A stretch of DNA of 64,000 nucleotides from the IMG/VR virus record IMGVR_UViG_3300011989_000005, positions 1 to 64,000 of that record. One strand, 5' to 3'. This document shows, piece by piece, positions 705 through 40,156 of this stretch. Origin of the DNA: a virus (lineage: Duplodnaviria; Caudoviricetes). Under the pieces are notes generated by a model. The model was not told the origin of the DNA and did no database searches. It saw only the letters and a program-made list of their open reading frames with translations. The position numbers were made by a program, and so were the translations under genes. The stretch's first letter is position 1. Every line of letters begins with the position of its first letter.

Positions 705-859
705 CCGTCGCTACATTTAGAGTTCCTTGATAAGGGACGGCTTTAATGCAGGGATTAAGCTACAACGGTCCCTGGCAAGCGAGCAATACATTATTATAAT
801 AATAAAAGCTACACGAAACAATGAAACATGATTCACCGATTCCCATAACAGGGATTATC

Positions 860-1065: not shown

Positions 1066-1101
1066 AATCACATTATTATAATCAAATAAAGCTACACAAT
1101 T

Positions 1102-1968
1102 ATGACACGTAAAAAAGCTACACATCTGCGGCACATTGTCGCAGTATCGAACAACAAGGGTGGGGCAGGCAAGACCACCACAGTGCTCAACCTCGCAGCG
1201 GCCATCGCACAGCGTGGTTATCGCGTGCTCGTCATCGACACCGATCCTCAGTGTAACCTATCCCTCTCCGTAGGGTGGGACCCGCAGCGCGAAGGTACTA
1301 AGACGGTCCTCGGCGAGCCGACCATCTTCAATGCCATCTGCCTCGGTCAGAACATCCCTGTCTATCGCAACGATATCGGGCTGTACTACACACCCTCATC
1401 GCCACGCATGGAAGATGCCGACGTGCATTTGAACTCCGCAGACGTCACCGATCCCGTGCGCGTACTGAAGGGGCTCTTCGCCGAACCTATCGACGACCAC
1501 ACTGGCGAGGGTCTGACGGAGTGGGAGAGCGCCTTTGATTTCATCTTCATAGACACTCAGCCTGCCATGAGTCGCGTCACGGTCAACGTCATCTGCGCCG
1601 CCACAGGTATCATCATTCCGGTAGAACTGGAACCGCTGGCCGTCGACGGATACGTGAAAACCATCGGTAAGATCATGAAGATTAAGAAGGTGTCGAATCC
1701 TGCCCTGCAGATACACGGTGTGCTGCTCACCAAGAAGGACTCCCGCCTGAACTCGGCTAAGAGTCTGGAGGAACTGCTGCGCGACGAGGGCGACGTGTTC
1801 AAGACTACCATCCGCCGCACCAACGACGTGCCTTCTTCTCAAGATCGTGACTTCGACCCGGAGCCAGGTGTCTGTCACGATATCTTCTCCTACCGCCGTA
1901 AGCGTGGTCATGCCGACGAAGATTTTATCGCCCTGGCCGACGAGTATCTGAAGCGGTGGGGAAAATAG
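1102..1968 (+). CDS. parA: ParA/Soj partition ATPase
   Basis: KGGAGKTT deviant Walker A, IDTDPQ, FIFIDT. Confidence 0.95.
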   Translation: MTRKKATHLRHIVAVSNNKGGAGKTTTVLNLAAAIAQRGYRVLVIDTDPQCNLSLSVGWDPQREGTKTVLGEPTIFNAICLGQNIPVYRNDIGLYYTPSSPRMEDADVHLNSADVTDPVRVLKGLFAEPIDDHTGEGLTEWESAFDFIFIDTQPAMSRVTVNVICAATGIIIPVELEPLAVDGYVKTIGKIMKIKKVSNPALQIHGVLLTKKDSRLNSAKSLEELLRDEGDVFKTTIRRTNDVPSSQDRDFDPEPGVCHDIFSYRRKRGHADEDFIALADEYLKRWGK

Positions 1969-2957: not shown

Positions 2958-2969
2958 AAGCTACACATT

Positions 2970-3576: not shown

Positions 3577-4498
3577 GCTCCCAATAGGACAAACCTCCCG
3601 CCTATAATTCAATCTTCGGGCACGCACGTTGAGACAGCAGCACACTACACGTACTTTCCGGACATCGCCCCAGCGTCGGGCGCCTGTCCTTCACCGTCAG
3701 TGTGTTGAATGTCGTGACGGGTGTGCAGCAGTCAGATAGATGCAAGGCGCAGATCGGAGTGTGGTAGGGCAGTTCCCGACAGGACAAACCATGACATGAA
3801 GCCCGTTCTTTAAACCTCCCATCAGGACAAACCTTGCCTATCAGTCTGAAAACCTCCCGACAGGACAAACCGCCGAAAACACTCGAATAAAGTTCCCGTT
3901 AGGACAAACTCTTAACGGAATTTTATTTGCACAGGAAATCCATATTATACGCAAGTACATGATAATCAGCGGCTTTTTATTTGCTTGTAACTTGCCAACA
4001 ATAAAAAAGTACCCCTAATAGACTTGATCACAAGGGACCGCTTCAAGTTAAAAACTCATCTTTCATAATATAGAAGAAAGAAAAAAACTCTCGTTCGTCG
4101 TTTTTGGGATATCATTAAGTATATATAGAATAACGTATATAGAATACAGGTGGCAGACAGTGATTGATTATCAGCGACTTACAAAACAAAGTTTGTCCTA
4201 TTGGGAACTATATCGGCACGGATGTTTGTCCTTTCAGGAACTGCAGTTTGTTCCATCGGGAGGATTTGGTTTATCCTATTGGGAACCGTTTTCCCATCGA
4301 GGTTTGTCCTAATGGGAGGCAATAACGGCATAGTTTGTCCTATCGGGAGCCTTATCTAAGGCGGAGGTTTGTCCTAATGGGAGCCATATTGCAACTATTT
4401 TGTTTTCACGGGAGCGTTATACGCACGCACACGGTTTGTCTTATTCGGAACCGCGTTGTTTGTCCTATTAGGAAACGCAACTTTATCTTTTTAGGAAC
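3577..4498. repeat. iteron-type replication origin
   Basis: 5 copies TCCCnnnAGGACAAAC (+), then ~11 inverted copies (some degenerate), flanking an AT-rich core with an IHF-like site, directly upstream of rep. Confidence 0.85.
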
Positions 4499-4569
4499 TA
4501 TAAAAACATAACTGATTGATAGTCAAAACAAATAAATTTCGCTATCTGAACAAAATATTTCCGAAAAAA

Positions 4570-4601
4570 TTTGGAAATAAGAAAATAAAAATCTATCTTT
4601 G
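4570..4601 (+). promoter_or_regulatory. rep promoter
   Basis: TTTG (4570) and TATCTTTG (4594). Confidence 0.75.
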
Positions 4602-4668
4602 CAGCAGATTTCTTGGGAGGCAACGCTACAACTGCCGAACAGATACCGAGACATAAAGCTACACGAAT

Positions 4669-5925
4669 ATGCCGAGAAAGAAGAAGAAAGGTGTTACCGT
4701 TCAGGTGAACGAACTCATTACCCAGCCACGCAAGATGGCAAGCCTTCCTGCGCTCAACAGCCGTATCGGGCAGCGCACGATGCTGGCTGTGCTCCAGCGT
4801 CTGCAGGGATTGTTTAATCTGGCCAAGGAGAAAGAGAACATGCGGGTGAAGGACCGCCAGTTGTATTTCAACTTTGAGTCTGAGGACTTCGAGGTGAAAC
4901 GCAAATCGACCGCCGGCTACAACGAGGGCGACGTGCTTTTTAACCTGTCGCTCTCCGATATCGCCGAGCCCAACCACTATCCGGAGGTGCGCGAGGCGTT
5001 GGGGTCGTTGCTCAATATCCACGTGCTGGTTCCTATTCCCGAGGAACCTGGCCACTTCCGCACTGAGTCGCTTATGCAGATCAAGGGAGAGTTCGATAAG
5101 GACGGCAAGTTTGTCGGTACCGACTTCGGTGTCATCGTTCCGCGCCTGGCTGCTGAAAGCATTCTCGACATCAACCTCTTGGGCGGCTACTCCCGCTTCC
5201 TGCTCTTCACCGCCTCACAGTTTCGCAGCGAGTATGCCTATTCGCTTTACATCCGTCTGTCGGAGGAGTGGCGTCGTCGTCGAACGAACGTCTTTGACAT
5301 CGACTACGAGGATCTTCGCCAGAATATGGGCTTTGTCGTTGAGCAACAGACGGTGAAGGACAAGAATGGCAAGGAAAGAGTTGTCACCGTTGACCACACC
5401 AAGAAGCACAGTTCATGGTCTCTCTTCTGCCGCTATATCCTCGACCAGACTCAACAAGAACTTTTGGCCATGTCGCAGCGCACACCGCCTGTCACCGACT
5501 TTACCTTCGAGTATGAGGGGCGGCTGGGCAGTGGCACTCTTCCGAAGTACAAGCGTCCCGATGTCGTGCGCTTTACTATTATCCCCACCAGCGTCGGAAA
5601 GCAGTTGTCGTCCGACAATGTATTTGCTTCGCAGAGCATCCAGGTCCGCCGTATGATGACTGATGTGTTCAAGCTCACAGAGGGACAGGCGCGTACTTTC
5701 ATGCGTCGCATAACCCCCGACAATGTGGATGGATTGCTGCAGCATATGGAGCAGTGGCAGGCTGACATAAAGAACGGTCGTCGTAAGACATCCAACCGTG
5801 CGGCATGGGTGTGGACCTGCATCGACAACTATCTGAGTCAGTCGGTGGTGTCAGTTCAGGCAGCGGTAGAAGTGAAAGAAGAATCCGGCGGTTCCAAGCC
5901 TGCTGAGATGGAAGAATGGAAGTGA
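4669..5925 (+). CDS. Rep_3/RepB-like replication initiator
   Basis: NELITQP, FRSEYAYSLY, YEDLRQ, RYILD winged-helix pattern; adjacent iterons. Confidence 0.8.
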   Translation: MPRKKKKGVTVQVNELITQPRKMASLPALNSRIGQRTMLAVLQRLQGLFNLAKEKENMRVKDRQLYFNFESEDFEVKRKSTAGYNEGDVLFNLSLSDIAEPNHYPEVREALGSLLNIHVLVPIPEEPGHFRTESLMQIKGEFDKDGKFVGTDFGVIVPRLAAESILDINLLGGYSRFLLFTASQFRSEYAYSLYIRLSEEWRRRRTNVFDIDYEDLRQNMGFVVEQQTVKDKNGKERVVTVDHTKKHSSWSLFCRYILDQTQQELLAMSQRTPPVTDFTFEYEGRLGSGTLPKYKRPDVVRFTIIPTSVGKQLSSDNVFASQSIQVRRMMTDVFKLTEGQARTFMRRITPDNVDGLLQHMEQWQADIKNGRRKTSNRAAWVWTCIDNYLSQSVVSVQAAVEVKEESGGSKPAEMEEWK

Positions 5926-5947
5926 GGTTTTGAAATAAATTCAAACT

Positions 5948-6847
5948 ATGAAAGACTATCAACAACTATGGGTCTCATGCCTGCAGGATATCAAGGAAAG
6001 GCTGATAAAAGTAGATAAAAGCGGATGGGTTTATAAGACATGGTTCGAGTCCGTCGTGTTCGAGAACTATGACGAAGAAAAGGATGCCATTCTTTTGCAA
6101 GTGCCCGACGTGCATGTGTATGAGTACCTGGAGCACTTCTATGCACCCCTCTTGAAAAAGATGATGGGATTATACTTCAGTCCGAAGACGACGCTGCTCT
6201 ACCGCATCGCGAAACGTCAGGAACCCCAGTTTGCCGACATCGCTGCCTACCTGAAGGAACATGGCGGCTATCGCCCCGACAGCGACCTCTACAACATCCA
6301 TGTGGATGATGCCGAGAAACGGCTGAAGGACGGGCTGCACTATTTTCTGAAAGGCAGCGAGCAATGGCTGCCTGCTTACGACCAGATAGTCTCCTGGCTT
6401 CAGGACAACAAGGGTAGGGGACTTCTCTGTATCGGACATCCTGGTCTGGGAAAGACACTCCTGTGCGAGAAGATTCTTCCCGTCATACTTGGTAATGGCG
6501 GCCGACCCATACCCTACGTAAGTGGTCCCGATATCTGTCACAGGCTCGATGAGTTGCTGAAGGAGCGTATTGTCATCATCGACGATCTGGGAAAGGAACC
6601 TGTCGAAGCCACCGTCAAATACTTGCGTCGCCGACCGTTCTTCGAGCTCTGCAACAATGCCGAGCGCACCGGGCAGCTGCTCCTTATCACCACCAATCTT
6701 GCCACCGCACGTCCTGCCTCCTGGCCTGCCGACCGTCCGTGGCCGTGGCCGGATAGTATCGAACACCGTTACGGTGCCGAAGTACTCGACCGCCTGAAGG
6801 TCATCACGAAGCTGGTAAGATTCGAGGGCACCAGTCTGCGGCAGTAG
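5948..6847 (+). CDS. DnaA N-terminal domain fused to DnaC/IstB-like ATPase
   Basis: LW...YKTWF N-term; GHPGLGKT, IIDDLGKE, ITTN, RYG...DRL...GTSLR. Confidence 0.8.
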   Translation: MKDYQQLWVSCLQDIKERLIKVDKSGWVYKTWFESVVFENYDEEKDAILLQVPDVHVYEYLEHFYAPLLKKMMGLYFSPKTTLLYRIAKRQEPQFADIAAYLKEHGGYRPDSDLYNIHVDDAEKRLKDGLHYFLKGSEQWLPAYDQIVSWLQDNKGRGLLCIGHPGLGKTLLCEKILPVILGNGGRPIPYVSGPDICHRLDELLKERIVIIDDLGKEPVEATVKYLRRRPFFELCNNAERTGQLLLITTNLATARPASWPADRPWPWPDSIEHRYGAEVLDRLKVITKLVRFEGTSLRQ

Positions 6848-6854
6848 CCATTTC

Positions 6855-7457
6855 TCATTTAGAGCCATGCACCGTTCGCTTCTGCCTTCTCTGCCACTCC
6901 CGCCTGATCGCGTCGATGTGTATATCTGATGTTCCAGTGGTGTCGCAGAAGTCCTCAACCATCTCCACGGCGGGATAAAAGTCCCCGTTCCGCTGGCGAC
7001 GGTACTCACGATCATATTCCTCCACGGCTTGCCAGAACCGTTCTCTAAGGAAGCGGTTCATCAGCGTGGCTTGTTTTGTGGTGAAACATGTGTCGTTCGT
7101 CCATGGTCTCAGCACACCGTCCTGTGTAAGGCGCATTTTCGGGCACTCAATAGGCACGAACTGTGCCATCCCCTGCCGGTCTATGCCGTATGCCCTCTTG
7201 GTCACCTCCTCGTTCAGCGTCAGTCCCGCATCAATCATGTTGTAGAGTGTTGCCGACATCGTGCATGTCACTGGTCGTCGTTCCAAGGTGTCCTCCGCCG
7301 TCTCCATACGCAGGATATCTCTCGCACCTCTCATGTGCTGCACGCAAATCACGTTCTTCCCGTCCACCCTCACTGCTCCTCCTAACTCATTCCTTAACCA
7401 GCCGTGTGTATACTCTGCCATCCTGAGCCACACAATTGCCGGCACTTTGTAAGCCAT
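6855..7457 (-). CDS. hypothetical protein
   Basis: ORF; start moved to MAYKVP because a TATCTTTG promoter box lies at 7500-7493. Confidence 0.7.
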   Translation of the reverse strand: MAYKVPAIVWLRMAEYTHGWLRNELGGAVRVDGKNVICVQHMRGARDILRMETAEDTLERRPVTCTMSATLYNMIDAGLTLNEEVTKRAYGIDRQGMAQFVPIECPKMRLTQDGVLRPWTNDTCFTTKQATLMNRFLRERFWQAVEEYDREYRRQRNGDFYPAVEMVEDFCDTTGTSDIHIDAIRREWQRRQKRTVHGSK

Positions 7458-7599
7458 TAGGTTCCTGTAGTGAAAATAATTTTTATCAGGCGCAAAGATA
7501 CAAAATAATTTCCAGACCTCCATCACATTCTTTGCTATTTATTCCTGCATATTTGTTCAGTTTGCCAGACCCATGTCCTTTACAGTTGCTTGCAAATTG

Positions 7600-8020
7600 T
7601 GCGGACAGTACTGATAATCAGATAGTTATAAGTTCTTTTTAGAGAAGTCAGTTAGAACGCTTACAGTTGTCTACAAACTAAGAATGAAAATTTAAAGCGT
7701 TGACTATCAATTATTTAAAATACCGCTTGCGCTCCAATTTCGCACAGTGGAATGAAAACACGCCAAACTTTTCTCTTTATAATTATTACATATTTCTAAT
7801 CACACACACACGATAAATTCCCCGCACCCCAAATTAAATTATAATTAGAGATATTTAAAGAAGAAAAGAGGTTGATTATCAATTAGTTATAATATTATAT
7901 ATATGTTATGTGACATTTTTTTAATTAAATTTTATTTGGAAATATAGTAATAATTCTACATTTACCGCATTTTTACCGCAAAAAATATTGTAACCAACTG
8001 ATATATAAATGTTTATAGAT
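7600..8020. promoter_or_regulatory. AT-rich region with IHF-like sites
   Basis: WATCARNNNNTTR matches at 7616, 7705, 7877. Confidence 0.4.
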
Positions 8021-8161
8021 GCGACAAAATCACATATTCAGTTTGTGCCGCCAAACCGTCAGAAAAACTTTATAGACACGGAATGCCCTGTGCATCGGCA
8101 TTTCAGACTGATTCATCGTCAGCAAACAAAAATTGCCCGTCAATTTAATGGGGCGCATTGA

Positions 8162-8190
8162 TTTGCTCTCACAGAAAATGAGTACCTTTG
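8162..8190 (+). promoter_or_regulatory. promoter for tRNA/sRNA transcript
   Basis: TTTG (8162) and TACCTTTG (8183). Confidence 0.7.
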
Positions 8191-8306
8191 CAGCGGCGAA
8201 TTTGTCATCTCGACTAAGAAAAAACATATTGCGACGAAGTTACGCCACCATAAAACGCATGGTTCCTCCATCCCCATTCCACCTCCATGCGTCTTCGTCG
8301 CTTCCT

Positions 8307-8390
8307 GGGTAAGCGCCGAAGTTGGAGAGACGGGGCAGACTGTAAATCTGCTGGCTAACGCCTGAGTAGGTCCGAATCCTTCCTTACCCA
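8307..8390 (+). tRNA. tRNA-Tyr(GTA)
   Basis: GGGTAAG/CTTACCC acceptor, GCAGA-CTGTAAA-TCTGC anticodon arm, long variable arm; T-loop TCCGAAT; CCA not encoded. Confidence 0.9.
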
Positions 8391-8615
8391 CATAGGATGA
8401 ATTTCTTCATACACCGCCGCGAGGCGCCTCTTGTACAACAATTTCTTTGCCGCTGTGAAGCGGGTGACATAAGTTTTTTGATTTGTTTTAGTAGATTAGT
8501 TTTTAAGTAGTTTGTTTTTGCCGGTCACTCCGGCAAACCATCGGGAGGCTCGCGTGTAGCTCCTCTCGTTTCGGCAGCCGCCCCGTTGTAGCACTCTGGG
8601 CGGCTGCCCTTGTCT
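8391..8615 (+). ncRNA. putative antisense sRNA in tRNA 3' trailer
   Basis: non-coding, several hairpins; last two loops carry TGTAGC complementary to rep/parA leaders. Confidence 0.6.
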
Positions 8616-8658
8616 TTCATGCTTCCAACGGATATTTTGCCGAAAATATATTAGCGAT

Positions 8659-9381
8659 ATGTACAATCCCTACAACCCCATCGACCTCATGCCGCAGGAA
8701 CTGCCGGACATGAAGAACCTCACGCCCGAGGAGCAGGAGCAGCTGTGCTACGCACATGCCATCTTCGGCTGTGCCACCTACATCGTGGCCTTCGTCCTCG
8801 CCATCAACCTCTGCGCCCTGCTGGGCTCCTGCGCTTCTCCGAAGGCTATCGACAGCACGGAGCATCACCACAGTGCCATCGACACGCTCAGCATCCAGGC
8901 TGCCGTCGATGCCCACATGACATCATGGCATGAGCGCATGGACTCCCTCTTTCGCGAGCGCACCGTCTCGTCCAGTGCAGCGCTGCACAACAGTACCGAT
9001 CAGAAGGAACTCATCACCGAGACCGTCACCACCACTACCGACTCGCTGGGCCGCGCCGTCCGTCAGGAGCAGCGCACCATCAGCCGCGACCTCCATCAGG
9101 AGCAGCAGCTCTATGAGCAGCGACTGGAGCGCGAGATGGAGAACCGCCTGCAGACCGCCCTCGCCCTTCAGGACAGCATCTGGCAGCAGCGCCTTGATGC
9201 TGCCCTGAGCCACCGCGAGCAGACCGACTCCTCCCGCCACGTCGTCACCCCCGTGCCCCAAGACAACCGCCCATGGTACCGCCGCTGGGCCGACCGCCTG
9301 CAGTGGCTTGCCGTAGGCATCGTCCTCGCCGCCGCCCTCTGGATCACCCGCCGTTGGTGGTTAGGGGTATTCCGGCGTTAG
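8659..9381 (+). CDS. lipoprotein, spanin-like
   Basis: hydrophobic segment plus LGSC lipobox, coiled coil, C-terminal TM with basic tail. Confidence 0.6.
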   Translation: MYNPYNPIDLMPQELPDMKNLTPEEQEQLCYAHAIFGCATYIVAFVLAINLCALLGSCASPKAIDSTEHHHSAIDTLSIQAAVDAHMTSWHERMDSLFRERTVSSSAALHNSTDQKELITETVTTTTDSLGRAVRQEQRTISRDLHQEQQLYEQRLEREMENRLQTALALQDSIWQQRLDAALSHREQTDSSRHVVTPVPQDNRPWYRRWADRLQWLAVGIVLAAALWITRRWWLGVFRR

Positions 9382-9438
9382 CCATGGTGTCGGAATAACG
9401 ATATATCGAAACATCGAAATCTCGAAAAAAAAGAAACG

Positions 9439-11064: not shown

Positions 11065-11096
11065 TTTGGTAGGCTCAAAAATACATTATATCTTTG
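11065..11096 (+). promoter_or_regulatory. sigma-A promoter
   Basis: TTTG (11065) and TATCTTTG (11089). Confidence 0.7.
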
Positions 11097-11126
11097 CAGC
11101 GGTTTTTTATTTTAATGCTACACGAC

Positions 11127-16661: not shown

Positions 16662-16746
16662 CCCCGCCCCTATCCCCGCCCCTGAGAGGGGTGGGGAACT
16701 ATCAAGACAAACAAACATTCAAATCAATTAAAAGCTACACAAGATT

Positions 16747-22100: not shown

Positions 22101-22228
22101 GATTTAAGTGAAGAGTGAAGAGTGAAGAGTGAAGAATTTGCTACCGCTCGACTATTTGCGGAGCGGCTACTGCCCTTGTGGGTGGGGTCGCTCCGCGAGA
22201 AATTATTATTAAAATTATTCAAACGACT

Positions 22229-22579
22229 ATGGCAAATTATATAGACATGATGGTCAGCAATACGCTGGAGAGGTTTAACCGTAGCAAGCTGAAGACTGTG
22301 CGCGACAACCTGGGGCTGAACCCTAAAGACGGAAAGTATTGCATAAGCGGGGACTTGGGCTATATGTCTTTAAGGCTCTTCTACTGCGGCGCGGAGGTCA
22401 GGCAGTACGACAACGGCAAGGTGTTCGTGTACTTCGACTATGACGACCGTGTTGGAGCGTGGGGCGGCTATACCCGTAAGTACGAGGTGAAGGACTTGGA
22501 TATATTCAAGTCGCCACGATGGATAAGCATCATCAAGAGCGAGGGCGTAAAGGCTTCGCCGGATGTGATAATGATCTAA
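22229..22579 (+). CDS. hypothetical protein
   Basis: ACGACTATG start. Confidence 0.7.
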   Translation: MANYIDMMVSNTLERFNRSKLKTVRDNLGLNPKDGKYCISGDLGYMSLRLFYCGAEVRQYDNGKVFVYFDYDDRVGAWGGYTRKYEVKDLDIFKSPRWISIIKSEGVKASPDVIMI

Positions 22580-22591
22580 AACGAAACGACT

Positions 22592-23080
22592 ATGGCAGTA
22601 AGAAACATGGACGCTATTGAGCGTCAGGGCAAGATGATTGCCGAGCAGAAGGCCAACGAGCGCAAGATGCGTGAGGATGGCTTCTGGCAGAGAGTGAACA
22701 CTATCAGGGCGTGCCACGACGACGCGGTGGACTTCATCGACACGGTGGATGCGCTGGTCAAGAACGGGCTGCGCTGGAGGTTCTCCGAGTGGATGAAGCA
22801 GCAGAACGTGAGCTATACTATCTACGACAAGAAGCTGGGCGTGTGTTGTCTGAGCGACAACAGGCAGGATGCTCATGTGTATTATGTACCTACGGAGAAC
22901 GCTGTCTGCTTCGGCTGGAGCGGCTGGGGTATGTGTGAGTATTACTCGACGAATGAGAAGATGGACTATTTCATTCATACCTATCTCAGCGACCACGGCT
23001 ACGACAAGGGACTGACGATGATGGCCACACGGCTGCAGCCGTTCTTGAAGGCATTCTTTGAGTGGGTGAAAACAATTTAA
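22592..23080 (+). CDS. hypothetical protein
   Basis: ACGACTATG start. Confidence 0.7.
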   Translation: MAVRNMDAIERQGKMIAEQKANERKMREDGFWQRVNTIRACHDDAVDFIDTVDALVKNGLRWRFSEWMKQQNVSYTIYDKKLGVCCLSDNRQDAHVYYVPTENAVCFGWSGWGMCEYYSTNEKMDYFIHTYLSDHGYDKGLTMMATRLQPFLKAFFEWVKTI

Positions 23081-23093
23081 ACGAGTAACGACT

Positions 23094-23438
23094 ATGGACA
23101 AGACTATATTGAACAGGATCCTGGCGGCGTGGTTTGAAGGCAGCCGCTATGTGACTGGAGAGAGCGACGAGTATGGCGACACCCGCTATGTGGGGTTGCA
23201 CGGCGGGCGGACTTCGGAGGTAGTGGCGAACGAGGCGCATCCCGACTCGCTGACGGTCTATGAGATCGACAAAGGTGGCTCGTATCTGAATGCGTTTAAT
23301 TTCGAGTTTGGAGACGGGACGGGTCACGGCGAGAACCTGCGGCTTATCGGCATGGAGGGCAGCGGGCACGACTTCAAGTTTGAACTGGTGCGCAACTATT
23401 CCGAGTGCCACACAACGATAACAATGATTAAACAATAA
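23094..23438 (+). CDS. hypothetical protein, paralogue of 25470
   Basis: near-identical to 25470..25820. Confidence 0.8.
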   Translation: MDKTILNRILAAWFEGSRYVTGESDEYGDTRYVGLHGGRTSEVVANEAHPDSLTVYEIDKGGSYLNAFNFEFGDGTGHGENLRLIGMEGSGHDFKFELVRNYSECHTTITMIKQ

Positions 23439-23451
23439 AACAGAGACAACT

Positions 23452-23673
23452 ATGGCAAAGGAAACTAAAGGCTATTCCAACGACAGGGACGGCAAACTGA
23501 GTTGGCTGCTTGACAGTCACTATAACCTGTATCATGCAGATATAATCTACAACGCTATGCACGACGACAATGTGAGCATACAGGACTTTATTCATGGATG
23601 CACTATGATTCACGCGGAAGAGGGTAGGGACAACGACGAGTTTGTACCCGACGAGTTTGAACATCTAAAGTGA
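23452..23673 (+). CDS. hypothetical protein
   Basis: ORF in packed array. Confidence 0.65.
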   Translation: MAKETKGYSNDRDGKLSWLLDSHYNLYHADIIYNAMHDDNVSIQDFIHGCTMIHAEEGRDNDEFVPDEFEHLK

Positions 23674-23680
23674 CGAGACT

Positions 23681-24073
23681 ATGGGACAATGTTATTCTGT
23701 GGCAATCAAAGCGAGATTCACTGACGAGGACGGCGCAAAGAAAGCGCTGCAGGCGAAGCTCGGCAGGCATGAAGAGGAGCACGTCAATTACAGCCTTGAC
23801 CACTTCACGGGTGAGCTTGGTCTGTCTACTGACAACCTGCACGACCTGATGGGCATATTCTTCGGCGGCTGGAAGGGCAGGCTCGAAACTGCACCTGCCG
23901 ACAAAACGTGGGAGTTTGCCGACTTCGATGCCTCCTATGGCTGGGAAAGTCTTATGATGGATGCCTTCGAGACAATCGCACCTTACCTGGCTGACGACTC
24001 TGTAATTAAAATCTTGCCCGATTCCGGTTGTGATCACGGAACAGTCAGGAACGGGAAATGCAAATGGGCATAA
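23681..24073 (+). CDS. hypothetical protein
   Basis: ORF in packed array. Confidence 0.7.
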   Translation: MGQCYSVAIKARFTDEDGAKKALQAKLGRHEEEHVNYSLDHFTGELGLSTDNLHDLMGIFFGGWKGRLETAPADKTWEFADFDASYGWESLMMDAFETIAPYLADDSVIKILPDSGCDHGTVRNGKCKWA

Positions 24074-24094
24074 CTATTAAAACAAGTAACGACT

Positions 24095-24841
24095 ATGGAA
24101 AAGAAAGATTTCTATGAAGACATCAAGGAGCTGCACAAAAACATCGTGGCTGAGACGGTGGCCCTGATGGTGGAGCACGGCGTGAAGGAGGTTGACCTGC
24201 TGGGCAGCGACTGCGACCATGCCTATGTGATGGGTTATCCGGGCGACGGGACCGGCGTGATGGAGATGGAGGTGAGCAAGGTGTACTATAAGGACTGTCA
24301 GCTGTGGCTCGACGTTATCCTCGACATCGACACAGAGGAACTGGCCGAGCAGAACGAGGACGGCGACATCGGTGATGCCTACCAGTGCTGGCGTGCCAAC
24401 GACTTCGAGCACTTCAAGCCCTGCGGCGGTATCGAAATGGTGTATGAGAGTGTATGGCAGGTGTTGGAGCGGCGGCTGCCCGAGGTGACGGAACCGGAGG
24501 AAATGGAGTTCTACAGCATCGAGCCCGACGGCAAGGGCGGCAAGCGGATACACGTATTGGGCTACTGCTATACCGAGGGCGACGACCAGGGCGAGGGACC
24601 GTGGCGCAACGTGGAGTACACGGGCTTCATTGAGCCGTTGCAGGAGTTTATCGACCACCTGAAGCAGAACGAGAACTATGTGGACGAGACGGCTGCCGAC
24701 GTGAAGCAGTACATCGGTGACTATACCGACGAGGGGATGGCCGACGTCATCAACCACTATTTCGACGGGCACACGGCGAACCGCCGCCTGCACTATTCGG
24801 AGATTACTATCGACACACCCTGCTGGGATTATATCAACTAA
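24095..24841 (+). CDS. acidic hypothetical protein
   Basis: GTAACGACTATG start. Confidence 0.75.
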   Translation: MEKKDFYEDIKELHKNIVAETVALMVEHGVKEVDLLGSDCDHAYVMGYPGDGTGVMEMEVSKVYYKDCQLWLDVILDIDTEELAEQNEDGDIGDAYQCWRANDFEHFKPCGGIEMVYESVWQVLERRLPEVTEPEEMEFYSIEPDGKGGKRIHVLGYCYTEGDDQGEGPWRNVEYTGFIEPLQEFIDHLKQNENYVDETAADVKQYIGDYTDEGMADVINHYFDGHTANRRLHYSEITIDTPCWDYIN

Positions 24842-24855
24842 CGACGAAACGATTT

Positions 24856-25464
24856 ATGGCAAAGAAACTATGGGAGGCCGCCCTGGAAAAGGCCAACGAG
24901 AACCTGAAGGAGTATGGCGCACAGTTGGAGGTGCGCCGTCAACTGGGAGGTGGCGACTATTCGCTTAACGTCAGTTGGAGCGACGGCGAGACGGAGAACT
25001 ATGCCAGCGGTTTCTATGAGGAGGAACTGGATCAGTTGGTGAGCGAGGCGTGGCCGGACGTGAGAATCAAGAGCCGCCATCGCGGCGACAGGATTATCCG
25101 CTGCATCGTGCATGTCGATACCACGGAGCGGTCGGTGCTCGACGGCGGCAAGTTCATTCACGAGCATGAGTATCTGGGCAGCGAGGAAGCCGCCGTGCGC
25201 TGGATGAACCAGACGCTGCACTATGTGCTCGACGACGCGGCGGAGATTGTGAGCATCGAGGACCTTATCAGCGTGAACGCTGCGCTGGCTGAGCAGTACG
25301 ACAGCCCGGCGAACACGGAAGCCTACGCCTCTATCGAGGACATCACGGAGGAGGTGATTGTGAAGTGCAGCGAGGTGTTCTGCGAGCACCACTGGAGCCA
25401 CAAGGCACTCACGGCTATAGCCGACGAGCTGGGAGTGGATTTGTATGACATTGAAAAACAGTAA
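24856..25464 (+). CDS. acidic hypothetical protein
   Basis: ORF in packed array. Confidence 0.75.
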   Translation: MAKKLWEAALEKANENLKEYGAQLEVRRQLGGGDYSLNVSWSDGETENYASGFYEEELDQLVSEAWPDVRIKSRHRGDRIIRCIVHVDTTERSVLDGGKFIHEHEYLGSEEAAVRWMNQTLHYVLDDAAEIVSIEDLISVNAALAEQYDSPANTEAYASIEDITEEVIVKCSEVFCEHHWSHKALTAIADELGVDLYDIEKQ

Positions 25465-25469
25465 CGACT

Positions 25470-25820
25470 ATGGACAAGACGATATTGGATAAGATTCTGG
25501 CGGCGTGGTTTGACAGTGGCCGCTATGTGACTGGAGAGGTCGACGAATATGGCGACACCCGCTATGTGGGGCTGCACGGCGGGCGGTGCTCGGAGGTAGT
25601 GAAGAACGAAGAACATCCCGACTCGCTGACGGTCTATGAGATCGACAAGGGTGGATCGTACCTTGGCGGCGACGGCTTTGAGTTTGAAGGTGGAATCAGG
25701 TCTGACAGCCATGAGAAGAACCTGCGAATGATAGGCATGGAGGGCAGCGGGCACGACTTCCGCTTTGAGCTGGCAAGAAACTATTCAGAGTGCCACACAA
25801 CGATAAAAATGATAATGTAA
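25470..25820 (+). CDS. hypothetical protein, paralogue of 23094
   Basis: near-identical to 23094..23438. Confidence 0.8.
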   Translation: MDKTILDKILAAWFDSGRYVTGEVDEYGDTRYVGLHGGRCSEVVKNEEHPDSLTVYEIDKGGSYLGGDGFEFEGGIRSDSHEKNLRMIGMEGSGHDFRFELARNYSECHTTIKMIM

Positions 25821-25825
25821 CGACT

Positions 25826-26470
25826 ATGATTATCAGATTCAAATTCACGTCATTCGACGGACAGATTGTTGAGGGGATGCGGACGGAACTGGACCGCAAC
25901 TATCCCGACGAAGAGACGGCGCTCATCCTCGTGGAGGACGAGCACCATGCCGACACGGAGGGCTACTTCGAGCTGAACATCCGCAAGGACAAGGACGGGC
26001 GGCTGACACAGGATGGCTATGTGGCGGAGTATGAGAGCAGCGACGAGGCAGAGGCGGCACACATCACGGAGCTGACCCTGCTGGAGGTGACGGAGCACGA
26101 CTTCGACGAGACGTTGCGCGAGGCCAACGAGACGCTGCAGCCATTCGGCAAGCGTATCGTGACAGACTACGACGGTGAGGGCTACTGGTCTGTAGGCAGC
26201 ACCGACATGGACGGCAGTAATCCTGACTGGTATGCCGATGCCGACTTCGAGCATGAGGTGAGGTCTTCTATCAACGAGTGTCTGGCTCATGTGCTGGCCA
26301 GGGTGAAGAACCCGGAGCTGTGGCAGCAGGGGCAGGACAAGATGGCGCAGATACGCCAGCTATGGGAGAGCCTGACGGGTATTGAGCAGGTGGACCTGAT
26401 GGTGGAGTTCTACTACGGATTGATGGACGCGGAGAAAGACAGATTTTTGAGTGAGACGGAAAACGGGTAA
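25826..26470 (+). CDS. acidic hypothetical protein
   Basis: GTAACGACTATG start. Confidence 0.75.
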   Translation: MIIRFKFTSFDGQIVEGMRTELDRNYPDEETALILVEDEHHADTEGYFELNIRKDKDGRLTQDGYVAEYESSDEAEAAHITELTLLEVTEHDFDETLREANETLQPFGKRIVTDYDGEGYWSVGSTDMDGSNPDWYADADFEHEVRSSINECLAHVLARVKNPELWQQGQDKMAQIRQLWESLTGIEQVDLMVEFYYGLMDAEKDRFLSETENG

Positions 26471-26475
26471 CGACT

Positions 26476-26859
26476 ATGGGAAAGAAATTTAGGTGCGAGG
26501 CACCAATCGACAACAAGAACCTGATGGAGGATGGGTTTGAGGACGATGTATTCCGGGATTTCTATTGGGCTCCCGAGCACAGGGCAAGCAAGCGCCGCCA
26601 TCTGGTTGGCGTGGTGGATTCTGAGAACTATGGCGCTATGGTGGACGTGAAATGGTCGTGGGGCGAGCATCAGATTGACATCCAGGTTATAGGCATTCAG
26701 CCTTCGGAGGATATCGACGAGGTGCGCCGCGAGGTGTTCGACCACTACGAGCGGACTTTCAAGGCGTGGCAATGCGAGGACAACCCCGGACTGGTGGTCG
26801 AGACCAAAGAGGTGCTTGGCATCCTGACTGTGAGTTTCTATTTTGAGACGGACGATTAA
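26476..26859 (+). CDS. acidic hypothetical protein
   Basis: GTAACGACTATG start. Confidence 0.7.
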   Translation: MGKKFRCEAPIDNKNLMEDGFEDDVFRDFYWAPEHRASKRRHLVGVVDSENYGAMVDVKWSWGEHQIDIQVIGIQPSEDIDEVRREVFDHYERTFKAWQCEDNPGLVVETKEVLGILTVSFYFETDD

Positions 26860-26871
26860 AACAGAGAGGCT

Positions 26872-27060
26872 ATGGTAAAGAGATTTAACGTGGACGTGGA
26901 TATCACCATGTCGTGCCGTATCGAGGTGGATGCGGAGAGTGAGGAACAGGCGAAGACTATCGTGGGCAACTGGATAGGCGACGACCCGTGGCAGTACGTC
27001 AGGGACGGGCATTATGTCGGGCACGAGTTCGAGAAGGTGAGCGAGTGCGGCGAAGAGTAG
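26872..27060 (+). CDS. DpnD/PcfM-like small protein
   Basis: FNVDV...IEVDAESEEQA. Confidence 0.55.
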   Translation: MVKRFNVDVDITMSCRIEVDAESEEQAKTIVGNWIGDDPWQYVRDGHYVGHEFEKVSECGEE

Positions 27061-27171
27061 TGGTCGCCTCACTGCGAGTTCTGCGACACCATCGTATAAA
27101 ATACGACCACGGGTGAATGGATTTCACAGAATATGTGTATTTTTGCAAACGGATTTAAAAACAATACGGCT

Positions 27172-27453
27172 ATGGATATCAAGCAAATTATTCGGCTGAC
27201 TCCTGAGCAGGAGCAGTTGTGCAAGGAGATGGAAGCCCTCTATCAGAAGATGCAGGCAGCGGGTATCGCCTTCGCAAAGAGCGAGAACGGAGATGTGGTG
27301 GCTTATAATGCCACGGAGATTGAGGACTGTGAGAGTGCCGATGTCTGGGGCGACGGTCCTGACGGCTATGAGTATGCAGAGCAGAACGATATGCGCCGGC
27401 TGTTCCCCGTATGGGGCTGCGAGACGCTGTATGTAAAACGTAAAACGGAGTAA
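27172..27453 (+). CDS. hypothetical protein
   Basis: TATTTTTG promoter box upstream. Confidence 0.7.
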   Translation: MDIKQIIRLTPEQEQLCKEMEALYQKMQAAGIAFAKSENGDVVAYNATEIEDCESADVWGDGPDGYEYAEQNDMRRLFPVWGCETLYVKRKTE

Positions 27454-27458
27454 CGACT

Positions 27459-27704
27459 ATGACGAAGTACAAAGCGACTATCATCTTCGGAGAGTATGCG
27501 GCCAAGGCTTATTGCAATGGCGGCGTGGAGGAAATGGCGGAACACATGGACGAGGGCCAGCTGACGGTGCGCGAGTTTGACACTGAGGCAGAGCGGCGGG
27601 CCTACATCATGGGCATCGACGACAGTGACGGGTGGCTGGGTGCCGCCGTGCTGAGCAAGGAGGATGCCGAGTGTGACACAGTGAAACAACTATTAAACGA
27701 GTAA
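27459..27704 (+). CDS. hypothetical protein
   Basis: GTAACGACTATG start; EFDTEAERRAY. Confidence 0.7.
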   Translation: MTKYKATIIFGEYAAKAYCNGGVEEMAEHMDEGQLTVREFDTEAERRAYIMGIDDSDGWLGAAVLSKEDAECDTVKQLLNE

Positions 27705-27959
27705 CCTATCAGCCCCGCACGGATCAACCTGCCCTTTGATGGGATGCGGGGCACTAACTTACGATGGATGATGTAAGAGGGAAGATGTAAGATGTCGGCC
27801 TTCAGCCATCAAAAAGAGTTTTGGCTATCGCCGAAAATTCTACGCCATGCCAAAGCTGAAGCGAGCTTCGCTTTGGTCATCTGGCTTAAACGTAATTTTC
27901 ATAACTTGTAAATGCCCGAGCCGGGTGCTCCGGTCGGGCGATTTGATTTTGAATGTTGA

Positions 27960-27996
27960 TGATGCAGCCTGTCGGGATGACACGCTGCATCTTTTT
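27960..27996 (+). terminator. intrinsic terminator-like hairpin
   Basis: GATGCAGC...GCTGCATC then TTTTT. Confidence 0.5.
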
Positions 27997-28031
27997 AGTT
28001 ACGATTATTTACCCCTAAAAGATATACGACT

Positions 28032-28922
28032 ATGGCATACAAATTTTCAGAGACTGGCAAGCTGGGCGATGAGTTCCAGCGGGTGTTCGGCATCGGCTTC
28101 AAGCCGTTCTACGACAGGCTGATATCGTTTGCCTCTAAGCAGATGTGCATCGACATCCTGAAATTCGACGAGTGGCTGCATCGGAAGCATGGCAACTATG
28201 AAGACTCAGGCAAGAGCATGGTTGACTGCATCCGTGAGCACTATGGAGAGGAGGGAGTGAGACTGTTAGACGAAGTGACAGGCGCGGATGGCGACAACCC
28301 TACGCCAAAACCGGAGCCGGAGAAGCCGAAGAGAAAGCCCAAGGCCAAGGCGAAGCCCGTGGACCAGAGAGCATTTAACAACAGGATTGCGCTGTCGCTG
28401 CTGCGGCAGTGTGCATGGATGTGGGAACACTGCATGCGGAGTAACAACGAGGGTACGTTTACGATGAAGGACGTGCGGATGGGGCTTTCGCTTCGTGACT
28501 TTAAGAAGAGTCCTGCGGGGTTTATCATGTTCGACCTTGGAAGCTGCGAATACTGGGATGTGTTCGACCGACAGGGAATTGAGGGCGTGAGCTACGATGC
28601 GGAGAATGAGAGGATGAGCATGTTCCTGCCCTACGACCCGCAGGGCGACCAGACGCTGGGATTCGGGTGCAGTTTCGAGGCGAAGGATGTTTTTGATGTG
28701 GCGTATCAGATGTGCAGCCCGAGCCTGTTGCAGAAGGTGCGCTTCTGCTATAAGGACGGCGAGCGGTGGTCGGACATCCCCGACATCGACGTGAAGCCTG
28801 CAAAGAAGAGCAAGCCCAAGGCGAGGGCTGCGGAGATACCGCAGCACACGGAGCCAGCCGAGCCTACGTTTGCGGAGAAACTAAGGGAGGCACTATTACG
28901 ACAATTCAGACAAGCGGCATAA
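28032..28922 (+). CDS. hypothetical two-domain protein, ends RQAA
   Basis: 296 aa with Pro/Lys linkers. Confidence 0.75.
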   Translation: MAYKFSETGKLGDEFQRVFGIGFKPFYDRLISFASKQMCIDILKFDEWLHRKHGNYEDSGKSMVDCIREHYGEEGVRLLDEVTGADGDNPTPKPEPEKPKRKPKAKAKPVDQRAFNNRIALSLLRQCAWMWEHCMRSNNEGTFTMKDVRMGLSLRDFKKSPAGFIMFDLGSCEYWDVFDRQGIEGVSYDAENERMSMFLPYDPQGDQTLGFGCSFEAKDVFDVAYQMCSPSLLQKVRFCYKDGERWSDIPDIDVKPAKKSKPKARAAEIPQHTEPAEPTFAEKLREALLRQFRQAA

Positions 28923-28941
28923 ACTGTAAACTTAGAAACTT

Positions 28942-30348
28942 ATGAACTATTTCGAGCATTGTATGACCCACGAGCAGCTGGAGCAGGAGCACCGCAGGCT
29001 CGTGATTAAGATGCACCCTGACCGCAACCCTGACAACCCCAACGCTACGGTGGAGTTCCAGGAGATGCAACAGCAGTATGAGGAACGCAAGGCCGAGTTG
29101 AACGGCGACTACCGCAAGAGCGCCAAGGGACGTGAGCGAAGGGAGCGGGAACGCAGGGAGCGTGAGGAACGGGAGCGCAGGGAGCGCGAGCGCAACCGGC
29201 TGGCCGAGGTGCTGGAGCAGGCACGGAGGAACAAGCAGAAGAAGGCGGGCGAACTGAAGGCGGGCGACTTCATCTATGCCCGTATGATTAAGAAAAGCGT
29301 GCTGGATATGGCTGCGCCTACACTGGAGCAACTGCTGCGACAGACTATCCGTAATGGCGTGAACGACGAGACGGTGGTGATGGTAGAGCATGTCATCGAC
29401 ATGGGCGACCAGGACTTCTATACCACTCCCTATAGCAGGCTGATAACGCCGGGCATGGTGCTCGGCGGGTGGGAGACCATCCAGAAAGCCGACCCGAAGA
29501 ACGGCGTGCCTAAGTCGAAGAAGGTGGCGAAGGTGGTGCTGTTCCGCTGCAAGAGCGGAAACGATGAGCTTGCTATCTTCGGGAATCCGATGGGCGACCC
29601 GTCTATCTCGGACTACTATCTGCCCTTCAACTATGAGACGCTGTTCAGCGTGGAGCTGGGCGACGCTAAGGCGCAGCTCGACCACGAGGCAGCGGAGAAG
29701 ACACGCATCGAGGCGGAGCGCAAGGCCCGCATCGAGGCGGAGCAAAGACCGCTGATAGACGAGTGGGCACCAAAGCTGATCGCTATCAGCCGGGGACTGA
29801 CCGACGCGGAGCAGCAGACGGTGGCTGTGAATAACCTGAAGACGGTACTGAAGGGGAAGTTCCCCGGGGTGACGTTCACCATCAAGGCCAACCGCTACGG
29901 CGAGACATCGGTGACGTGGGAGGACGGGCCGACGGTGGTGGAGGTGGTAGGTACCGCCGACCTCTTCAATGACTGGCTACAGCTGACGGAGCCGACTCCC
30001 TGGCAGGAGCGCTTTGGACGGGTGACTATTAACATAGCCGACTTCAACCGCAAGATGAACACGCTGACGAAGGCCCGCATCCTGCATCAGTTGGGCGGCG
30101 TGACGGAGGCGTTCAGCCAGGGCGACATCGACGACGAGGTGACAGTTAGCGACGACGACTGGACGATGCTGCACCTGATGGTGGGTGTGAGTGTCGGCGA
30201 CAAGGATGCTACGCTATGCCGCTGCCACGAGCAGGCTGACGGAATACGGCGGGTGCATATCGGCACGGCTGTAAGGTATGTGTTCGACAGGACGAGCTAT
30301 GCACGCTCAAAGACAACTGCAAAGAAGAAAACGAAGCAGGCGGCGTGA
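28942..30348 (+). CDS. J-domain plus LPD29-like protein, ends KQAA
   Basis: HPD motif N-term; LKGKFPGVTFTI...VTWEDGPT. Confidence 0.75.
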   Translation: MNYFEHCMTHEQLEQEHRRLVIKMHPDRNPDNPNATVEFQEMQQQYEERKAELNGDYRKSAKGRERRERERREREERERRERERNRLAEVLEQARRNKQKKAGELKAGDFIYARMIKKSVLDMAAPTLEQLLRQTIRNGVNDETVVMVEHVIDMGDQDFYTTPYSRLITPGMVLGGWETIQKADPKNGVPKSKKVAKVVLFRCKSGNDELAIFGNPMGDPSISDYYLPFNYETLFSVELGDAKAQLDHEAAEKTRIEAERKARIEAEQRPLIDEWAPKLIAISRGLTDAEQQTVAVNNLKTVLKGKFPGVTFTIKANRYGETSVTWEDGPTVVEVVGTADLFNDWLQLTEPTPWQERFGRVTINIADFNRKMNTLTKARILHQLGGVTEAFSQGDIDDEVTVSDDDWTMLHLMVGVSVGDKDATLCRCHEQADGIRRVHIGTAVRYVFDRTSYARSKTTAKKKTKQAA

Positions 30349-30397
30349 TTGGATTTTATAACGACAACGGATTAAACGAATTAAACGAAGTGAGACT

Positions 30398-31129
30398 ATG
30401 GGACAGTATTATCATGGCGTGATTCTCGACGCTGAAACGAGAAAGCCGATTATGGCCACCTATCCTGTGTTCAGGAAGATGGTAGAGAGCGGACTGTGGG
30501 ACGTATGCCGCATAGCATACGAGGTGAGCAAGGGTCGGCAGGGATATAAGCAGCGCGTGACATGGGCTGGCGACTACTCGGAGCGTGAGGACTACGATGG
30601 CGAAACGCTGTATCACTACATCCTGAATAACAGCGTGCCTGAAACGATGGGCAAGGAATATAAGAAGTACCCCATTAAGGGCAGTGAGTTCTCGGAGGCG
30701 TGGATCAATTCGATTGACGCTTTCTTCCGTCAGTACGTGACCGACGAGAAAGATATCATCCGTCCGGAGTATCGCTACCTGTGCAACCACGACCGCCGCG
30801 AGTGGATAGACCTCATGCCGTTCTTCACGGCAAAGGAGCGGGTGTTCAGGAATCCGATAGCCATCCTGACGAGCGACCCGACGTGCCGCTGCGGTGGTGG
30901 CGGCGACTATCGCTACAAAGAGGACTTCGAGTGGTACGGTGCATGGAGCGACTGCCGACTGAGCAGCGAGCCTGCACCGCCCGACGGCTACCGGCGCATC
31001 GCCCCGATGTTCGAGGCGAAGACCCGTATCGGCAGCGACGACCCGCTGCTGGAGTCGGAGCCAGTGGCACCGATGCTGGAGGCAGGCGAGCCTACATTTG
31101 CCGAACGTCTGCGCAAGGCTCTGGGTTGA
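30398..31129 (+). CDS. hypothetical protein
   Basis: MGQYY..., WAGDY, GGGDY, GAW motifs. Confidence 0.75.
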   Translation: MGQYYHGVILDAETRKPIMATYPVFRKMVESGLWDVCRIAYEVSKGRQGYKQRVTWAGDYSEREDYDGETLYHYILNNSVPETMGKEYKKYPIKGSEFSEAWINSIDAFFRQYVTDEKDIIRPEYRYLCNHDRREWIDLMPFFTAKERVFRNPIAILTSDPTCRCGGGGDYRYKEDFEWYGAWSDCRLSSEPAPPDGYRRIAPMFEAKTRIGSDDPLLESEPVAPMLEAGEPTFAERLRKALG

Positions 31130-31439
31130 GCACTATGGCAGCAAGGCGGCGTGAGAAAAGCTGCTCACGAGCAATCTCCAGATTGGTTACAAGCAATCAG
31201 GAGGTTGTTCGTGAATGATTAGAAATTGACAACAGACAAAATCAAAACAAGCGAGATTATGGACAACGAAAAGAAAAGAGCAAAGGTTATCGAGATGACC
31301 TTTATGGTGACAGCGGAATGGCAGTGGTGAACCTTATGACCGACTATGTGTCGGAGAAGGATTGGGGACATCTCTATGACCGTCTGGATAGAGATGGTGC
31401 GTTCAGGAATGATAAGTGAAACTAAAACGACAACGAGAT

Positions 31440-36470: not shown

Positions 36471-36593
36471 ACACCCAGATTTCGTGAAGTATACTTGGTG
36501 TGAGGGAAAAGTATACTTCACGATTTTGCCCTTTATGACGAACACGAATGACCGTAAATTATCCACGAATTTTTCATTAAACATTTAGACGAT

Positions 36594-37718: not shown

Positions 37719-37856
37719 AACCTTCATACCTATAAAGCTGAACCCCCTCAAAATCAAACGACATATCATTCCCTCCGAAACCATATATCGTCTCCTCCGA
37801 AACGATATATGGTTTCTTTTCGACCCATTTTTCAACCCCAAAACAATTCAAGCATT

Positions 37857-38825: not shown

Positions 38826-38933
38826 CCCCGACCCTCTGTCGGCCTCTGAACGGATACCAGGTAACCGTTGCCAACGGCTACGAGGTATCCGTTTCCACAC
38901 AAGATTATTAACCCCCAAAAAACATTTCAAGTT

Positions 38934-39356: not shown

Positions 39357-39383
39357 TAACCCCCAACAAAAACAATTCAAGTT

Positions 39384-40100: not shown

Positions 40101-40156
40101 GCAACGAGAGAGAAATAACTAACATTTTTAACCCCCTAAAACAAAACGAAACGAAT

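Follow-up and report, generated by a model that had tools for sequence, protein, structure and literature searches.

The window studied here, the first 64,000 nucleotides (nt) of the 134,182-base virus record IMGVR_UViG_3300011989_000005 in IMG/VR (CheckV completeness 100), carries downstream of a putative replication gene, rep, an RNA locus that we read as encoding a trans-acting antisense small RNA (sRNA) of a Bacteroidota phage-plasmid, most likely a repressor; we put the probability of this reading at about 0.72. We take the RNA for an antisense regulator because its loop and its target change together in related phages. A sequence-only reading of the window had proposed a two-loop antisense RNA at 8540-8612 that matches paired sites in the leaders of rep and of a partition gene, parA. 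Both hairpins, their loop seeds and their coordinates are as it described them, with one G-U pair in hairpin 1, and both genes belong to the predicted targets; the RNA, however, is longer than proposed, starting near 8392, and the target set is wider, comprising at least eight start regions. Related loci are denoted by L and G numbers, and the features of the window are collected in Table 1.

What does the RNA present to its targets? Folding leaves both seeds unpaired in loops. The 13-nt loop of hairpin 1 holds the seed CGTGTAGCT (CGUGUAGCU) at 8553-8561, which is complementary to AGCTACACG, a tag found just ahead of start codons, and the 14-nt loop of hairpin 2 opens with the seed CGTTGTAGC (CGUUGUAGC) at 8584-8592, which is complementary to GCTACAAC(G) and is followed by a T-rich tail at 8609-8619. 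As had been proposed, the rep leader displays GCTACAAC at 4625 in a hairpin loop and AGCTACACG at 4657, although the upstream site matches over 8 nt and not 9. Likewise, GCTACAACGG at 759 and AGCTACACG at 807 are present in what had been called the parA leader, but the ATG at 821 opens an open reading frame (ORF) of 72 amino acids (aa), and parA itself starts at 1102 with a tag of its own. By folding, the upstream words GCUACAAC (4625) and GCUACAACGG (759) both lie in leader hairpin loops. The spacing of the two seeds and sites is close to what had been given, each start-to-start distance being one less: 31 nt in the RNA, 32 in rep and 48 in parA.

The main evidence for base pairing comes from the relatives, where the target word usually lies 4-6 nt past the promoter box of rep and parA-like operons, or before start codons. 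Three pairs of words occur. In class I, the loop GTTGTAGC (GUUGUAGC) goes with the target AGCTACAAC (AGCUACAAC) in 13 elements (the window, L127, L158, L123, L125, L126, L129, L136, L145, L149, L142, L135 and G001); in class II, the loop GTTGTAAC (GUUGUAAC) goes with AGTTACAAC (AGUUACAAC) in two (L124, L144); in class III, the loop TTTGTAGC (UUUGUAGC) goes with AGCTACAAA (AGCUACAAA) in a further two (L140, L154). Loop and target are thus concordant in 17 of the 17 elements that have both the RNA and a leader on the DNA compared, which is the compensatory change that the sequence-only reading had named as a check. For the four elements of classes II and III, loop and cognate target are complementary over 11, 11, 12 and 14 nt, as against non-cognate means of 6.7-8.1; a cognate value of 6 for G001/L161 is an artefact, the leader window having begun 2 nt past the site at L128 9888-9896. 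The concordance was counted without L155, which has the RNA and no rep promoter on the locus, without L133 and nine short loci, which end before the downstream DNA, without L139 and L153, which have class II-type AGTTACAAC targets with the RNA outside the DNA compared, and without the two-loop RNAs of L168/L174, L176 and L177, for which the RNA alone was compared. On the Rep tree, L140 (class III) is the sister of L142 (class I) with a support of 100/99, L154 sits on a distant long branch, and class II-type targets turn up in at least three places. With the classes scattered in this way, the switches do not go back to one inherited event.

The relatives were reached through Rep, for which the protein collection contains 130 homologues, many of them on contigs of 110-138 kb. 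With 26 of these aligned, viral contigs yielded 8 loci and metagenome contigs 31, to which the record G001 was added through L128; a Rep alignment against genome contigs gave no relative. Eighteen loci carry the RNA once duplicates and loci that were too short are dropped. A first pattern scan of the viral contigs, with 16 specified bases and a wide gap, was too loose, and the 20 hairpin-like candidates among the matches listed included none with the features of the family; a tighter pattern returned 13 stretches, six of them true two-loop relatives and seven chance matches in coding DNA. The two-loop form, with a second hairpin that carries GUGUAGCU, is found in the window, L127, L158, L168/L174, L176 and L177. 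Most relatives have a single loop, GUUGUAGCUUU, which is able to cover both the 5' word and a AAAGCUACA tag. The two-loop RNA is near-identical across elements in which the identity of the Rep proteins is only about 43%, so the RNA module must move between backbones. One relative, L124, contains at 9168-9290 a second short promoter-to-terminator unit upstream of rep, whose 9-nt loop TTTGTAACT matches the AGTTACAA(C) tags of that element over 8 nt.

The terminal hairpin is built on 17 distinct stems of 7-14 base pairs around the same loop word, with 5' arms that are 39% identical and with loops that are unusually long for a terminator (13-40 nt); L158 and L127 share the same stem. Stem covariation, also called for by the sequence-only reading, is found in the GNRA-tetraloop hairpin further upstream, where 77.1% of the cells are paired, compared with 61.9% after shuffling and 38-44% in slid controls, and where 14 double changes stand against 5.0 in shuffles, none of 500 shuffles scoring as high. 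It is not found in hairpin 1, which is invariant.

Several signals bear on the strand. A strict TAnnTTTG box, which in the window and its relatives we take to be the Bacteroidota -7 promoter element, lies within 420 nt upstream of the RNA on the + strand in 17 of the 18 loci; on the other strand, to the right, it is found in 1 of 18. At least five T in ten nucleotides are present in 15 of 17 terminator tails, which together with the G+C-rich stems fits an intrinsic terminator. As the promoter boxes upstream, the T-rich tails and the GNRA tetraloops all read on the + strand, this strand is favoured for the RNA. The same three signals disfavour an alternative put forward with the original proposal, in which a - strand transcript would act as a CsrB-like protein sponge; moreover, there are two copies of the word and no many-copy array, and the strand that has the promoter and terminator signals displays its complement.

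The promoter at 8183 precedes a tRNA-Tyr gene that abuts the RNA, and the proposed link to a transfer RNA (tRNA) therefore stands. In L158, which has no tRNA, the TACCTTTG box is located exactly at the position of the window's tRNA end, so that the same 5' end is predicted for the RNA. A tRNA-Met precedes the RNA in L135, and in most other relatives the RNA has its own promoter and no tRNA. A block resembling the leader hairpin in front of the window's tRNA, with its inner arms changed, was recognized by eye ahead of the RNA in L145, L135, L125, L129 and L158; this hairpin could act as a signal for processing or form an additional domain of the RNA. A protein-coding role was considered and rejected, as the sole small ORF, of 37 codons, loses its ATG in L127. 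Promoter boxes, stems, tails and the unconserved ATG of this ORF together fit a non-coding, trans-encoded base-pairing sRNA with its own promoter and terminator. Read data were taken from Logan contigs, which are unstranded and give neither RNA ends nor levels. In run X1, an RNA library in which DNA may be present, 8 listed pieces lie over 4625-7117, and run X4 gave almost no coverage. In runs X2 and X3, whose kind is uncertain, the bin 8401-8800 has a summed contig depth of 150.8 and 193.2, respectively, compared with at most 15.9 in the other bins; nothing is drawn from this.

Across the 134-kb genome, the core of the start-codon tag, AGCTACAC, occurs at eight sites outside the RNA locus, compared with an expectation of about 4.1 sites of any kind for an 8-mer, and seven of the eight end 1-6 nt before an ATG: those at 821, 1102 (parA), 2970, 4669 (rep), 16747 and 58564 (- strand), and that of a lipoprotein-type gene near 106,987. 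A second copy near the start of parA, at 1116, lies inside codons 5-8. The exact 9-mer AGCTACACG is present three times in the window, twice at start regions and once, antisense, in hairpin 1. For GCTACAAC there are seven non-self sites: the two leader hairpin loops (759, 4625), one post-promoter site (42217) and four in coding DNA. Counts alone are near chance, with 29 occurrences of GCTACA for 26.2 expected and, for the two 9-mers with up to one mismatch, 18 for 12.7 and 20 for 13.7. The significance thus rests on where the words are placed.

The two loops divide the work between them, loop 1 serving the start-codon tags and loop 2 the upstream words. With the tags, loop 1 forms duplexes of -12.6 to -14.8 kcal/mol (-14.8 at site 807) and loop 2 duplexes of -8.7 to -11.5; at the upstream sites, loop 2 reaches -13.0 and -17.9 kcal/mol and loop 1 -10.9 and -11.1, the site at 759 giving -17.9 with loop 2 against -11.1 with loop 1. 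Among the tagged genes, the 171-aa protein at 11127 matches no Pfam family; its Atlas look-alikes are helix-turn-helix proteins of the Cro/C1 type (score 0.94), which is a lead only. The lipoprotein-type gene, outside the window at about 106,484-106,996 on the - strand, encodes 167 aa with the signal …LMTGC… and has its AGCTACAC tag 1 nt before the ATG; the product may be a surface or exclusion protein belonging to the same regulon. Pairing of the tag with ribosomal RNA of the host was also considered, as a GUGUAGC word is presumably present in host 16S rRNA, and was ruled out: the tag differs among related phages, and the loop follows it.

Two further observations concern start regions. In a co-oriented array at 22223-41090 (+), at least 12 genes have another motif, (A)GTAACGACTATG, directly against their ATG; this second motif is also seen at genome position 97972, and a search of the whole genome gave no RNA loop complementary to it. 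The RNA's U-rich body (8440-8519) has 95 complementary 10-mers in the genome, about 57 being expected, and complements GGCAAAGAAA right after the ATG at 18272, 19787, 24858 and 51487 (-), which is suggestive of extra seeds in the U-rich body for some ATG-GCA-AAG-AAA starts.

How might such an RNA act? In the scenario we propose, the + strand would be transcribed from the 8183 promoter jointly with tRNA-Tyr, the RNA would presumably be released at the 3' end of the tRNA, and it would end at hairpin 2, which would be terminator and seed carrier at once. The loop of hairpin 2 (GUUGUAGC) would then pair with the 5'-proximal GCUACAAC word in the messenger RNAs (mRNAs) of rep and of the parA operon, and that of hairpin 1 (GUGUAGCU) with the AGCUACAC tag 1-6 nt upstream of the start codons of ORF 821, parA, ORF 2970, rep, the Cro/CI-like ORF 11127, ORF 16747, the gene at 58564 (-) and the lipoprotein gene outside the window. 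Because the target mRNAs have no Shine-Dalgarno sequence and rely on their A-rich start region being open, pairing there should block binding of the 30S subunit. In this way replication, partition and a few other genes could be held down in coordination, with the seed word setting specificity groups for immunity or incompatibility.

The same RNA and the same pairing might instead have a positive or neutral effect, with pairing at the 5' end or within 5' hairpin loops protecting the mRNAs from 5'-end-dependent decay or opening an inhibitory structure, which would make the RNA an activator or stabilizer of the plasmid genes. Such a role would suit the position of the GCUACAAC word, which in most relatives, at 4-6 nt past the promoter box, is at or near the predicted first nucleotides of the mRNA, as well as the 5'-proximal hairpins that hold the upstream words in the window. 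We nevertheless regard it as unlikely, since the second class of targets lies 1-6 nt before start codons, where a duplex should hinder initiation, since tags are also found at genes inside an operon that have no promoter of their own (1090, 2959), and since c4, a known analogue of this geometry, represses according to the available part of one account (PMC5320573).

Less probable still, in our estimate, is that a protein, for instance a repressor, a partition protein or Rep, recognizes the word as an operator in DNA or as a site in RNA, in which case the sRNA locus would carry one more such site or a - strand GCUACA decoy. Many sites do lie right after promoter boxes, where operators are found, the folding energy does not separate the strands (z = -3.32 on the + strand and -2.81 on the - strand), and a protein that changed its specificity while reading the word in DNA or RNA would produce covariation as well. 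However, the word is not a dyad, its copy at the RNA locus has in every case the orientation opposite to that at the genes and lies each time in the loop of a hairpin with a covarying stem, and the promoter boxes are on the + strand side (17 of 18 against 1 of 18), together with the T-rich tails. In addition, the complementarity reaches into element-specific flanks, up to 14 nt in L154, and no promoter accompanies the tags ahead of internal start codons. That the element is an ordinary trailer or terminator of a tRNA operon with chance complementarity, or a cis-acting leader or attenuator of the gene at 8659, is very improbable: it does come after a tRNA and end in a terminator-like hairpin, and word counts alone are near chance, but its loop word is conserved on 17 different stems and varies in step with the targets, in many relatives the RNA is preceded by a promoter of its own and not by a tRNA, the DNA past the terminator differs among relatives, and loops of 13-40 nt are long for terminators.

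That a protein reading the word would produce covariation as well also weighs against the repressing antisense RNA that we prefer, only the loop position and the strand signals speaking for the RNA on this count, and this point is joined by several others. The seeds are short, at 8-10 nt, and the spacing of the target sites varies (32 nt in rep, 48 in parA, 18 in the rep leader of L127), so that simultaneous binding of both sites is not constrained. The terminator tail of the window is weak (CTTGTCTTTC), and L142 has none. The terminator stems are 100% paired by construction, having been chosen as paired, and the stem of hairpin 1 is identical in all seven two-loop variants and thus lends no covariation support, the case for this hairpin being that of its loop and the tags. 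Among the relatives, the rep promoter of L153 has a deviant site, AGATACAAC, one tag in L158 reads TGCTACAAA, and L125 and L129 carry AGCTACACA tags but a single GUUGUAGCUUU loop; that loop pairs over 9 nt with AAAGCUACA, its register being shifted. Finally, the + strand transcript, including its ends and its strand, is a prediction from signals in the DNA.

Table 1. Features of the RNA locus, its target sites and the plasmid-type genes in the window.
Feature	Position	Strand	Remarks
Upstream target GCTACAACGG in hairpin loop of parA-operon leader	759-768	+	promoter box 697-704; partial GCTACA at 710
Start-codon tag AGCTACACG, ends 5 nt before ATG 821 (72-aa ORF)	807-815	+	
Start-codon tag AGCTACAC (AGCTACACA), ends 4 nt before parA ATG 1102	1090-1097	+	
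ParA	1102-1968	+	AAA_31 at 9.7e-34, phrog_164 at 1.2e-47
Start-codon tag, ends 3 nt before ATG 2970	2959-2966	+	174-aa protein, weak BRCT-like match
Upstream target GCTACAAC in rep-leader hairpin loop	4625-4632	+	promoter box 4594-4601
Start-codon tag AGCTACACG, ends 3 nt before rep ATG 4669	4657-4665	+	
rep, 418-aa protein	4669-5925	+	named rep in the sequence-only reading
DnaC-like helicase loader adjoining rep	5948-6847		
Promoter box TACCTTTG of predicted tRNA-sRNA transcript, Bacteroidota-type -7	8183-8190	+	same box type in 17/18 related loci
Leader hairpin before tRNA, outer arms GCGACGAAG/CTTCGTCGC, inner arms ACGCATGG/CCATGCGT	8231-8301	+	read from the sequence
tRNA-Tyr (GTA), same orientation, directly abutting sRNA	8307-8391	+	ARAGORN; Rfam tRNA model 38.6 bits
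Non-coding sRNA body, about 230 nt	8392-8620	+	5' end predicted from tRNA 3' end and L158 promoter; 3' end, T-rich tail past hairpin 2
Hairpin CGCC-GCGA-GGCG	8415-8426	+	
GNRA-tetraloop hairpin CCGCT-GTGA-AGCGG	8450-8463	+	position kept across family
U-rich unpaired middle	8478-8519	+	near-identical in L127, L158, G001
Hairpin 1: CGGGAGG 8542-8548 / CCTCTCG 8562-8568	8542-8568	+	one G-U pair
Hairpin 2 (terminator): GGCAGCCGCCC 8573-8583 / GGGCGGCTGCC 8598-8608	8573-8608	+	
GCTACACG, ends 2 nt before ATG 11127	11117-11124	+	171-aa protein, promoter box 11089-11096
Start-codon tag, ends 6 nt before ATG 16747 (41-aa ORF)	16733-16740	+	
GCTACAAC, 5 nt past promoter box 42204-42211	42217-42224	+	layout typical of relatives
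Start-codon tag, ends 5 nt before ATG 58564	58570-58577	-	278-aa protein, no family found

How does the RNA compare with known systems? In the part of a published account available to us, c4 of the phages P1 and P7 is processed from a longer transcript and has two loops, one directed at the ribosome-binding region and the other further upstream for specificity, and a few loop changes with matching target changes separate the heteroimmune P1 and P7 (PMC5320573). As far as this account goes, the window RNA resembles c4 in being a small RNA of a phage-plasmid, in opposing two loops to two target sites and in having its specificity set by changes in loop and target (PMC5320573). By analogy, the window RNA appears to work like c4 without being a member of the c4 family. 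It has no match to c4 in sequence or structure in Rfam, one of its seeds lies in a terminator loop, its target mRNAs are without a Shine-Dalgarno sequence, and a tRNA gene is linked to it; c4, by contrast, is an RNase P substrate in its own right. Furthermore, c4 controls the antirepressor operon that contains c4 itself, whereas the predicted targets of the window RNA are at least eight start regions in several distant transcription units, among them rep and parA, and none is on the tRNA-sRNA transcript.

The CI RNA of the satellite phage P4 is a processed immunity RNA whose short seed is directed against repeated sites in its own early transcripts and which causes premature termination within its own operon. 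It shares with the window RNA a short seed complementary to repeated sites, but the sites in the window belong to separate operons, where they lie at 5' ends and at start codons, and Rfam gives no match. Copy-control RNAs such as CopA of R1, RNAI of the IncB/IncI plasmids and RNAII of pMV158 are encoded in cis, are fully complementary to one target and block Rep translation through a kissing contact. The likeness here consists in a predicted loop-loop contact with the rep leader, a gene beside rep and the candidate origin, and a seed that would define incompatibility; the window RNA differs in being encoded on the rep strand at a distance of 2.6 kb downstream, in sharing 8-14 nt with its targets and in having many of them.

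The lack of evident sequence similarity to c4 and CI that the sequence-only reading had noted is borne out. Scanned at gathering thresholds, the whole window has no match in Rfam, and a scan of 7500-8700 with E values up to 10 gave, besides the tRNA, five rows at chance level that did not include c4. The 8-mers were not found in the literature searched, and no such RNA turned up in the available parts of the literature on Bacteroides, phage-plasmids, antisense RNA and rumen phages. On these grounds the window RNA appears to constitute a new RNA family that has yet to be curated. Immunity and copy control by RNA are textbook knowledge for P1, P4 and enterobacterial plasmids, and little is known of them in Bacteroidota, whose mRNAs have no Shine-Dalgarno sites and from which, to our knowledge, Hfq and ProQ are absent.

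A single RNA seems to control a set of tagged genes, including rep, parA and the Cro/CI-like gene, in phage-plasmids that are abundant in gut and rumen. The experiment of compensatory mutation has already been made by nature, three times over, and the result is a testable model for how such elements maintain themselves as plasmids and shut out their relatives. A bolder proposal, which we offer tentatively and rate at somewhat less than an even chance, is that the RNA is the master specificity determinant of widespread 110-145-kb Bacteroidales phage-plasmids, in which promoters of one class write a tag (AGCUACAAC or a variant of it) into the start region or the first nucleotides of every mRNA and the terminator loop reads it, setting copy number, partition and immunity together. 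Should this hold, the three seed/tag pairs would represent natural, mutually orthogonal types of immunity or incompatibility that arose more than once, and the RNA module and the tags would travel together between Rep lineages. Short, swappable seed/tag pairs of this kind could also act as orthogonal post-transcriptional switches in Bacteroides genetics.

The genome surrounding the RNA looks like that of a Bacteroidota phage of gut or rumen type with plasmid genes. It is read as a phage-plasmid because ParA and a Rep_3-like protein are present and no integrase or resolvase is: PF00589 and PF00239, for tyrosine and serine recombinases, each have zero matches in the complete 134,182-base record. 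Rep itself has no match in Pfam, PHROG or NCBIfam; its look-alikes in the Atlas carry Rep3_N/Rep3_C with a score of 0.96, a lead only. The host is probably a member of the Bacteroidales, to judge from the TAnnTTTG promoters, the similarity of the tRNA to tRNA genes of Bacteroides/Phocaeicola plasmids and one Rep homologue named for a Bacteroidaceae metagenome-assembled genome. A BLAST search of 4400-9400 against phage and plasmid records had the tRNA as its sole match and retrieved no annotated relative. Between the - strand ORF at 6855-7523 and the RNA promoter there are about 650 nt of AT-rich non-coding DNA (7524-8180), with two TTGA(C/T)TATCAATTA-like palindromic words at about 7700 and at 7873, a candidate replication origin beside rep. 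Finally, TGCGGTTG(C/T) repeats at 660-700 and 850-1070 flank the parA-operon promoter and fill the 72-aa ORF 821; these repeats may be a partition site or iterons, and ORF 821 is perhaps not a real gene.

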